The notes below the pieces were generated by a model that searched no databases, was not told the origin of the DNA, and saw only the letters and a list, made by a program, of their open reading frames with translations. A DNA stretch of 64,000 bases, taken from NCBI RefSeq assembly GCF_055900595.2, contig NZ_CM148325.1. One strand, given 5' to 3'. A program made the translations under genes and the position numbers. Of the stretch, positions 1,905-3,811 are shown one piece after another. Position 1 is the stretch's first letter, and each line of letters opens with the position of its first letter.

Positions 1905-2168
1905 TCAGGCGCGGATTTGTTGTGATGTGGTTGTGCTCTGGCAGATGGCAACGTGTGCGACGTCCACCAGTTTATTTAACTGACTAAACAGTAAGTCGAC
2001 CGACCGTGGGCTGGCAACGGTCAATTCGATATTTATATTTTGTGCATCGCTGGCGGCGGCCATATTCATTGAGCAGACGTGGAAACCACGATGACGCACC
2101 ACGCGTAAAACACGTTCTAAGGTTTCCGGATTGAAGCGAGCCGATACATTGACCTGATGTTGCATCAT
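1905..2168 (-). CDS. ilvM: Acetolactate synthase II small subunit (87 aa)
   Basis: 87-aa ORF, 4-bp overlap with the ilvG stop as expected for translational coupling; ilvGMEDA synteny. Confidence 0.92.
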
Positions 2169-3811
2169 GATAATTTCTCCAACATTTCTGAATTACTGGC
2201 GCCAGGCGGCACCAGCGGCCAGACGTTCTCAAGTTCGTCGATTGAGACATGAAGCAGGTATGGCCCATCACTGTTCAGCATGGTGTCGAGTGCCGCTTCA
2301 ACCTGGTCTTTACGGGTGATGTGTTGGCCAGGGATGCCGAAGGCGCTGGCTAACATGAGGAAATCGGGATTATCGGTAAGGGTGGTTTCGCTATATCGTT
2401 CCTGGAAAAACAGTTGCTGCCATTGTCGAACCATCCCTAACCGTTGGTTATCGAGTAAGACGATTTTCAACGGTAACTGCTTGCGTTTTACGGTGCCCAG
2501 CTCTTGCACATTCATCATGAAAGAGCCGTCACCGGAGATACAGACGACGGTATCGTTCGGTCGCGCAACTTGCGCACCAACCGCTGCCGGTAAACCAAAC
2601 CCCATGGTGCCTAATCCGCTTGAAGTGATGAAATTTTCCGGGCGAGTGTGGACGATGTGCTGCGCGGCCCACATCTGGTGCTGCCCTACATCTGTGGTTA
2701 CTACACAATCTTCAGGTTTACGATCCGACAGTTGTTTTAACAACAACGGCGCGTAGATAGCATCACCGGGATGGTTGTAACGCCATGCATGTTCATCACG
2801 CAGCTGCGCGCAGTGTTGCTGCCAGTCATTGATATTTAACGGCTGCTGTAACGCAGGCAACAGCGTGTTTAAATCACCCTGCAATGCCACATGCGCCTGA
2901 CGCAGCTTGTTCATTTCTGCCGGGTCGATATCCATATGGATAACACTGGCGTGTGGTGCGAAGGTGTTCAGTTTGCCAGTTACCCGGTCATCAAAACGTG
3001 CACCCACGGCGATCAACAAGTCGCATTCCTGCACCGCAAAGTTCGCCGCTTTGGTGCCGTGCATCCCCAGCATGCCCAGATAGTACGGATAATCCGCATC
3101 AACTGCGCCAAGTCCTTTCAGCGTGCAGGTGGCAGGCATTTTTGTGGCAGAGAGAAATTCACGCAAAGCCGAAACTGCCTGCGCCATGCCCACGCCACCG
3201 CCAACGTACAGCATCGGTTTTTGCGCTTTTGCCAGCATCTGACGCGCTTGCTCGACTTCGGCATGTGGGAAAGTCACTTCGTTTTCAACAGTGGTGAACC
3301 ACGGTTCCAGATCGCCGCTGGCTAACTGGATATCTTTTGGGATATCGACCAAAACCGGACCGGGACGACCTGAGCTGGCGACGTCAAACGCTTCGGCCAT
3401 GATACGCGGTAACTCTTCCAGTGATTGCACCAGGAAACTGTGCTTGGTGCAGGCTAACGACAACCCCAGAATATCCACCTCCTGAAATGCGTCAGTGCCG
3501 ATAAACGGTGCGGATACCTGACCGGTGATAGCAACAACGGGGATGGAATCTAACAGCGCGTCCGCAAGCCCGGTTATCAGGTTGGTTGCACCAGGACCAG
3601 ACGTGGCGATGCAAACGCCAGTTTTGCCGGTAGCACGGGCATAACCGATAGCCGCCATTGCTGCACCTTGCTCGTGTCGGCACAGCAAGTGTTCCACGCC
3701 ACCGTCATACAATGCATCGTAAACCGGCATAATTGCGCCACCCGGATAACCGAAAACGGTGTTCACACCCTGTGCCCGCAACGCATGTACCACCCACTGT
3801 GCGCCATTCAT
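2165..3811 (-). CDS. ilvG: Acetolactate synthase II large subunit, intact 548-aa reading frame
   Basis: Single uninterrupted 548-aa ORF with thiamine-diphosphate enzyme motifs (GDGSF...NN); sits between ilvL and ilvM. Confidence 0.93.

Follow-up and report, generated by a model that had tools for sequence, protein, structure and literature searches.

An uninterrupted ilvG gene in the ilv operon of a non-K-12 Escherichia coli

The ilvG reading frame and its operon

The window (the whole 64,000-nucleotide stretch of DNA analysed here) contains a single open reading frame at exactly 2165..3811 on the minus strand, which encodes 548 aa from an ATG start and includes its TGA stop. The chance of 548 stop-free codons is about (61/64)^548, or ~4e-12, and 2165..3811 is therefore not a chance ORF. 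The product was assigned to the IlvG family by a full-length match above the curated cut-off of NCBIfam NF006524, the equivalog model for the acetolactate synthase 2 catalytic subunit (1073.6 bits against a cut-off of 738 bits; residues 1-547 aligned to profile positions 1-547 of 548). The gene is 100% identical to the annotated ilvG of E. coli Z0117EC0005 (WP_032304139.1), and was designated ilvG (548 codons plus TGA), encoding the large (catalytic) subunit of acetolactate/acetohydroxyacid synthase II (AHAS II). A first-pass annotation of this DNA had described an intact 548-aa ilvG frame at 2165-3811 without giving its strand; the ORF listing and the full-length NF006524 match agree with this description, and the strand is minus.

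Upstream of ilvG on the same strand lies ilvL (3951..4049, minus), encoding a 32-aa leader peptide rich in Ile/Val/Leu codons (translation MTALLRVISLVVISVVVIIIPPCGAALGRGKA; annotated as ilvL in Z0117EC0005), which showed 0% divergence across all Escherichia species sampled. RNA folding of window 3885-4075 (minus strand) gave a free energy of -66 kcal/mol (z = -3.87) and a terminal hairpin, ACCCCCGCACCGAAAGGUCCGGGGGU, followed by UUUUUUUU, corresponding to the predicted ilv attenuator terminator at 3895..3930 (minus), a GC-rich hairpin followed by U8. This minus-strand attenuator was recovered by RNA folding and was not reported by a simple terminator scan, and a sigma-70 scan upstream of ilvL returned only weak promoter-like matches. 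The small ORF ilvX (3814..3864, minus; 16 aa) is directly upstream of ilvG, and ilvX is annotated at the same offset in identical DNA. Both ilvL and ilvX translate intact, placing ilvG in the ilvLXGMEDA operon position behind the ilvL attenuator.

Immediately downstream of ilvG is ilvM (1905..2168, minus), encoding the 87-aa AHAS II small subunit (NF008362 at 133.9 bits, cut-off 68), the ATG of which overlaps the ilvG TGA by 4 nt (ATGA at 2165-2168). The IlvM protein of Z0117EC0005 has the same accession as that of the K-12-lineage strain DH1 (WP_000983255.1). Downstream of ilvM are ilvE (956..1885, minus), encoding a 309-aa branched-chain amino-acid aminotransferase (TIGR01122 at 489.8 bits, and annotation in Z0117EC0005), and the 5′ part of ilvD (1..891, minus), which is cut by the window start and was assigned by collinearity with K-12 and Z0117EC0005. 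The RefSeq gene order in Z0117EC0005 is ilvL-ilvX-ilvG-ilvM-ilvE-ilvD-ilvA.

The textbook ilvLXGMEDA arrangement, seen here, combines transcription attenuation on an Ile/Val/Leu-rich leader with translational coupling of the two AHAS II subunits, large and small. Transcription of the operon in the window would begin at a start upstream of ilvL, under attenuation control, with ribosome stalling on the ilvL leader setting whether the GC hairpin and U8 terminator forms. Translation of ilvG would produce a 548-aa ThDP/FAD/Mg-dependent enzyme, with ilvM translationally coupled to it via the ATGA overlap, and the two products would form AHAS II, joining pyruvate with pyruvate or 2-ketobutyrate with no feedback inhibition by valine. 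The strain would be expected to grow with valine and to be free of the ilvEDA polarity caused by the K-12 frameshift.

Comparison with the ilvG pseudogene of K-12

That ilvG is frameshifted in K-12 and intact elsewhere in E. coli has been textbook knowledge since 1981. In RefSeq, ilvG of MG1655 is annotated as a pseudogene (b4488, 1645 nt), and ilvG of the K-12 derivative DH1 is annotated as 'frameshifted'. Pairwise alignment of the window to MG1655 located two bases that are absent from K-12 at gene nt 977-978 (2834..2835, minus), where the window reads TTAAATATCAATGA and K-12 reads TTAA--ATCAATGA; these two bases keep the window frame open, and the difference is the sole indel between the window and MG1655 in the aligned 5-kb region. 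Because the 2 bp are missing, the K-12 frame runs into a TGA at codon 328, whereas the window frame continues to codon 548, and the window thus has neither the deletion nor the premature stop of the K-12-type pseudogene. The two loci are orthologous, sharing flanking genes and identical ilvL, ilvX and ilvM products, and beyond the deletion the two ilvG sequences differ by 95 substitutions (5.8%; 94.2% identity).

In K-12, ilvG is inactivated by frameshift and the remaining two isozymes are inhibited by valine, so that valine starves K-12 for isoleucine (PMC7066862). The premature stop in K-12 ilvG is UGA, and selection yields frame-restoring mutations (PMC8605374), while in B strains ilvG is intact and mediates valine resistance (PMC3446290). 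The first-pass annotation had stated that K-12 ilvG carries a frameshift and had proposed alignment to K-12 ilvG around it as a check. The statement is borne out by the 2-bp deletion and premature TGA in the alignment, by the RefSeq pseudogene and by PMC7066862, PMC3446290 and PMC8605374, and in the proposed alignment the K-12 deletion is seen and both bases are kept in the window.

The frequency of the K-12 state was assessed using an 80-nt probe spanning the K-12 deletion, matched exactly across complete E. coli genomes. The ilvG gene was present in 5,425 of 5,426 genomes, nearly always at full length, and the exact K-12 junction was found in 340 of the 5,426. Among the matches listed, those with an exact junction were K-12 laboratory derivatives, and the non-exact matches all spanned 82 bases, i.e. 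carried two extra bases. The ilvG match in the K-12-derived records DH1Ec169, HT-947 and EC600 spanned 1645 bases, not 1647. An intact ilvG is the species norm in E. coli and the K-12 state is the exception. The finding is therefore already known and ordinary, as almost every non-K-12 E. coli has an intact ilvG, and intactness tells little beyond 'not K-12'. Its practical use is as a strain marker indicating that a sequence is not K-12, and its discovery value is small.

The window gene has no difference of substance from natural E. coli ilvG, represented by WP_032304139.1 in Z0117EC0005 and by REL606-type B strains, with which it shares a length of 548 aa, operon position and family model; in B strains, as in the window, the gene is intact (PMC3446290). 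Judged from its sequence and context, window 2165-3811 is very probably the wild-type, uninterrupted ilvG of a non-K-12 E. coli; it stands second among the coding genes of the ilvL-ilvX-ilvG-ilvM-ilvE-ilvD(-ilvA) operon and very probably encodes a working valine-insensitive AHAS II.

Divergence of the ilvG allele

The allele itself is rare. Alleles at least 99% identical to the window ilvG were found in 8 of 5,426 complete E. coli genomes (Z0117EC0005 and seven others), all 8 having 100% nucleotide identity to it, and the next closest alleles were 98.9%, 98.6%, 97.8%, 97.6% and 96.7% identical. At the protein level the window allele is 3-14 residues from the six other intact alleles examined. 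Detailed comparison was carried out with eight E. coli alleles and with outgroups gathered by a DNA-pattern scan, a set without E. fergusonii, E. marmotae, E. ruysiae or E. coli's own representative. Window 2570-3770 (ilvG nt ~40-1240) differs by 5-10% from common E. coli alleles, a distance similar to that from E. albertii or E. whittamii. The ilvG allele of E2348/69 (L006 2501-4147) is a mosaic, differing from the window by 0.2% in nt 1-400 and by 7.1% in nt 801-1250.

Two explanations for the divergence were rejected. It is not inflated by the pseudogene status of K-12 ilvG, as K-12 is 1.3% from the intact EC6563 allele and intact mainstream alleles lie as far from the window as K-12 does, and it does not reflect relaxed selection, with dN/dS at 0.03-0.09.

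The pattern resembles recombinational mosaicism in which a deep or foreign allele took part. One possible origin, which we regard as somewhat doubtful, is import: homologous recombination with a divergent, unsampled Escherichia lineage would have brought in the 5′ ~1250 nt of ilvG. Alternatively, an old allele may have been retained within E. coli. An import would be compatible with a functional gene. It would account for the ilvG core showing the highest divergence anywhere in the 42.5-kb K-12-collinear block (7.2-7.8% from K-12 in two 500-bp bins, against a mean of 2.5%), and for the position of E. albertii, which at 4.7% is nearer to a mainstream E. coli allele (EC6563) than the window is to mainstream E. 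coli alleles (5.3-6.1%). No donor was found among the sampled Escherichia species, however, the window ilvG being 6.4-7.4% from E. albertii, E. whittamii and two further Escherichia species, with E. fergusonii, E. marmotae and E. ruysiae outside the sample. The ilvG alleles of the window, 2013C-4282 and EC42405 form a clade at 100% bootstrap, separate from the mainstream E. coli alleles, which also favours import, but the deeper nodes of the tree have 20-75% bootstrap and eight E. coli alleles were compared in detail. The flanking yifB gene has a normal species separation (2.5-3.5% within E. coli, 9.3% to E. albertii) and the E2348/69 allele is visibly mosaic, both of which favour import as well. 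Against this, ilvE and ilvD have dS values (0.17-0.25) only slightly below those of ilvG (0.19-0.27), so part of the divergence excess is operon-wide.

A homogeneous segment adjoining the ilvG core

Next to the divergent core is a segment of the opposite character. Window ~1811-2561 (~750 bp, comprising the 3′ 400 nt of ilvG from nt 1250, ilvM and the start of ilvE) is 0-4% divergent in every sampled Escherichia pair, including E. albertii vs E. whittamii, whereas the sequence on either side is 5-10% divergent among Escherichia. The same segment is 6-14% from Citrobacter. It contains GcvB sRNA target sites (at ilvM and ilvE) and, ahead of ilvE, an internal promoter (PMC9299463); as these are short elements, they are unlikely to be the cause of conservation over 750 bp. 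The homogeneity could result from a genus-wide recombinational sweep or homogenisation, or from strong constraint at synonymous sites.

A tentative reading of the ilvG-ilvM region is that two opposite events meet there, the 5′ ~1250 nt of ilvG representing either a very ancient polymorphism or DNA introgressed from a lineage outside the sample, and the adjoining ~750 bp a recent genus-wide recombinational sweep or unusually strong synonymous constraint. A deep, rare ilvG allele beside a genus-homogeneous segment is mildly interesting for recombination and species boundaries in Escherichia.

Predicted function of the enzyme

The residues E47, F109, M250, R276, M460 and W464, which we take to be functionally important from AHAS II mutagenesis, are all present in the window IlvG, as is G427-D428-G429...N455, presumably the ThDP/Mg motif (GDG...N, 427-456); E47 is presumably the catalytic glutamate of ThDP enzymes. 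A literature search on Trp464 of AHAS II returned nothing citable. The dN/dS of the window ilvG against six other intact E. coli alleles was 0.026-0.086, which indicates purifying selection, the signature expected of a gene kept in use. The first-pass annotation had called the gene uninterrupted, and a disabling change elsewhere in the frame was sought; no obvious one is present.

Four IlvG residues are allele- or clade-specific (T316, N346, E367 and V387). They fall in an inter-domain stretch where AHAS II, AHAS I (6lpi) and plant AHAS align poorly, and where altered sequence is tolerated in K-12 revertants (PMC8605374). An open frame encoding an inactive or poorly active enzyme, through lineage-specific missense changes (e.g. 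D346N, A316T, A367E, A387V) or a silent expression defect, is very improbable. Such a reading can point to N346, which replaces an Asp shared by all 8 Escherichia, 2 Citrobacter and 1 Klebsiella sequences (11 of 11) that were sampled outside the window-type allele clade, and to T316, which is unique to the window allele among sampled sequences. Conservation of position 346 does not extend to AHAS I or plant AHAS, however, and the changed positions are in linker stretches that vary within the family. The low dN/dS speaks for continuing purifying selection, the protein is unchanged across 8 independent complete genomes of dog and human origin, and all checked cofactor and catalytic residues are present. 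A silent expression defect is likewise disfavoured by the leader, ilvX, ribosome-binding region and ilvM, which are identical or nearly so to those of K-12.

The best reading of this ilvG is, with high confidence, that it encodes a working, valine-insensitive enzyme, given an intact attenuator and ilvM, the presence of every cofactor and catalytic residue examined, and a low dN/dS. Enzyme activity, valine insensitivity, a valine-resistant phenotype and the absence of ilvEDA polarity are inferred from the literature and from what is known of the family. Valine resistance has been attributed to intact ilvG (PMC3446290), and we predict a valine-resistant organism in which ilvEDA expression is free of polarity.

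The catalytic subunits of E. coli AHAS I (IlvB, 6lpi) and of plant and yeast AHAS (1ybh, 1n0h) belong to the same ThDP-dependent fold family and are paralogues or distant orthologues of IlvG, with IlvG residues 2-544 alignable to them (E = 1e-162). AHAS I and III are inhibited by valine, whereas AHAS II is not (PMC7066862). A PDB sequence search returned no entry for the large subunit of E. coli AHAS II (ilvG); a 5ahk chain labelled 'acetolactate synthase II, large subunit' is a distant match to IlvG (E = 5.3e-85).

Genomic background

Window 1-42534 is collinear with K-12 3,954,368-3,911,838 at 97.6% identity (2.4% divergence over 42.5 kb), and spans ilvD, rrnC, rbs, oriC, atp and glmS. K-12 has nothing corresponding to two segments, 42535-47957 and 52630-60071, at these positions. 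The first, an insertion between glmS and pstS, is a four-gene chaperone-usher fimbrial operon (190, 243, 847 and 357 aa), annotated in RefSeq as LpfA/B/C-O113 long polar fimbriae in a near-identical strain. The second takes the place of the K-12 bglGFBH-yieLK-cbrBC block and contains three large ORFs, at 53049-55568(+), 56038-57225(-) and 57478-59925(+). These ORFs had no Pfam match at 1e-5, and their PADLOC/NCBIfam matches were far below cut-off, with a weak AAA-ATPase (PtuA-like) hint and weak pentapeptide-repeat matches; RefSeq labels in the corresponding segment of the near-identical strain are 'type III effector protein', 'pentapeptide repeat-containing protein' and 'hypothetical protein', plus a frameshifted remnant. 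Window 1-9811 matches E. coli Z0117EC0005 (NZ_CP098223.1; from a dog in South Korea) at 100% identity, and window 40353-64000 is 99.94% identical to it (10 mismatches, 1 gap), so the DNA derives from this strain or one very closely related to it.

The non-K-12 background proposed in the first-pass annotation was upheld by the 95 differences in ilvG, the 97.6% identity over 42.5 kb and the two segments absent from K-12. The same annotation had described the intact gene as consistent with two accessory islands; the two non-K-12 segments are real, but they have no specific or functional link to ilvG. That the gene is a laboratory K-12 revertant (ilvG+ or an 'ilvO'-type frame-restoring mutation), not a natural wild-type allele, has next to no probability and is refuted: such mutations arise readily under selection (PMC8605374), but the window has 95 substitutions relative to K-12 inside ilvG, the natural TTAAATATCAATGA at the lesion with no compensating single-base change, lpf and effector-like segments that are absent from K-12, and 99.9-100% identity to a canine isolate.

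Local departures from the average K-12 identity were seen at other points in the window. The 3′ end of glmS (41501-42500), adjoining the fimbrial insertion, is about 7% from K-12, and yieH-adeP-yieF-yieE (60072-63998), beyond the second non-K-12 segment, is 92.6% identical to K-12, against 97.6% in the main collinear block. Window 25501-26000, corresponding to viaA by collinearity, is a divergence peak relative to K-12 (7.0% in 500 bp). By collinearity mapping, oriC is expected near window ~28400-28630.
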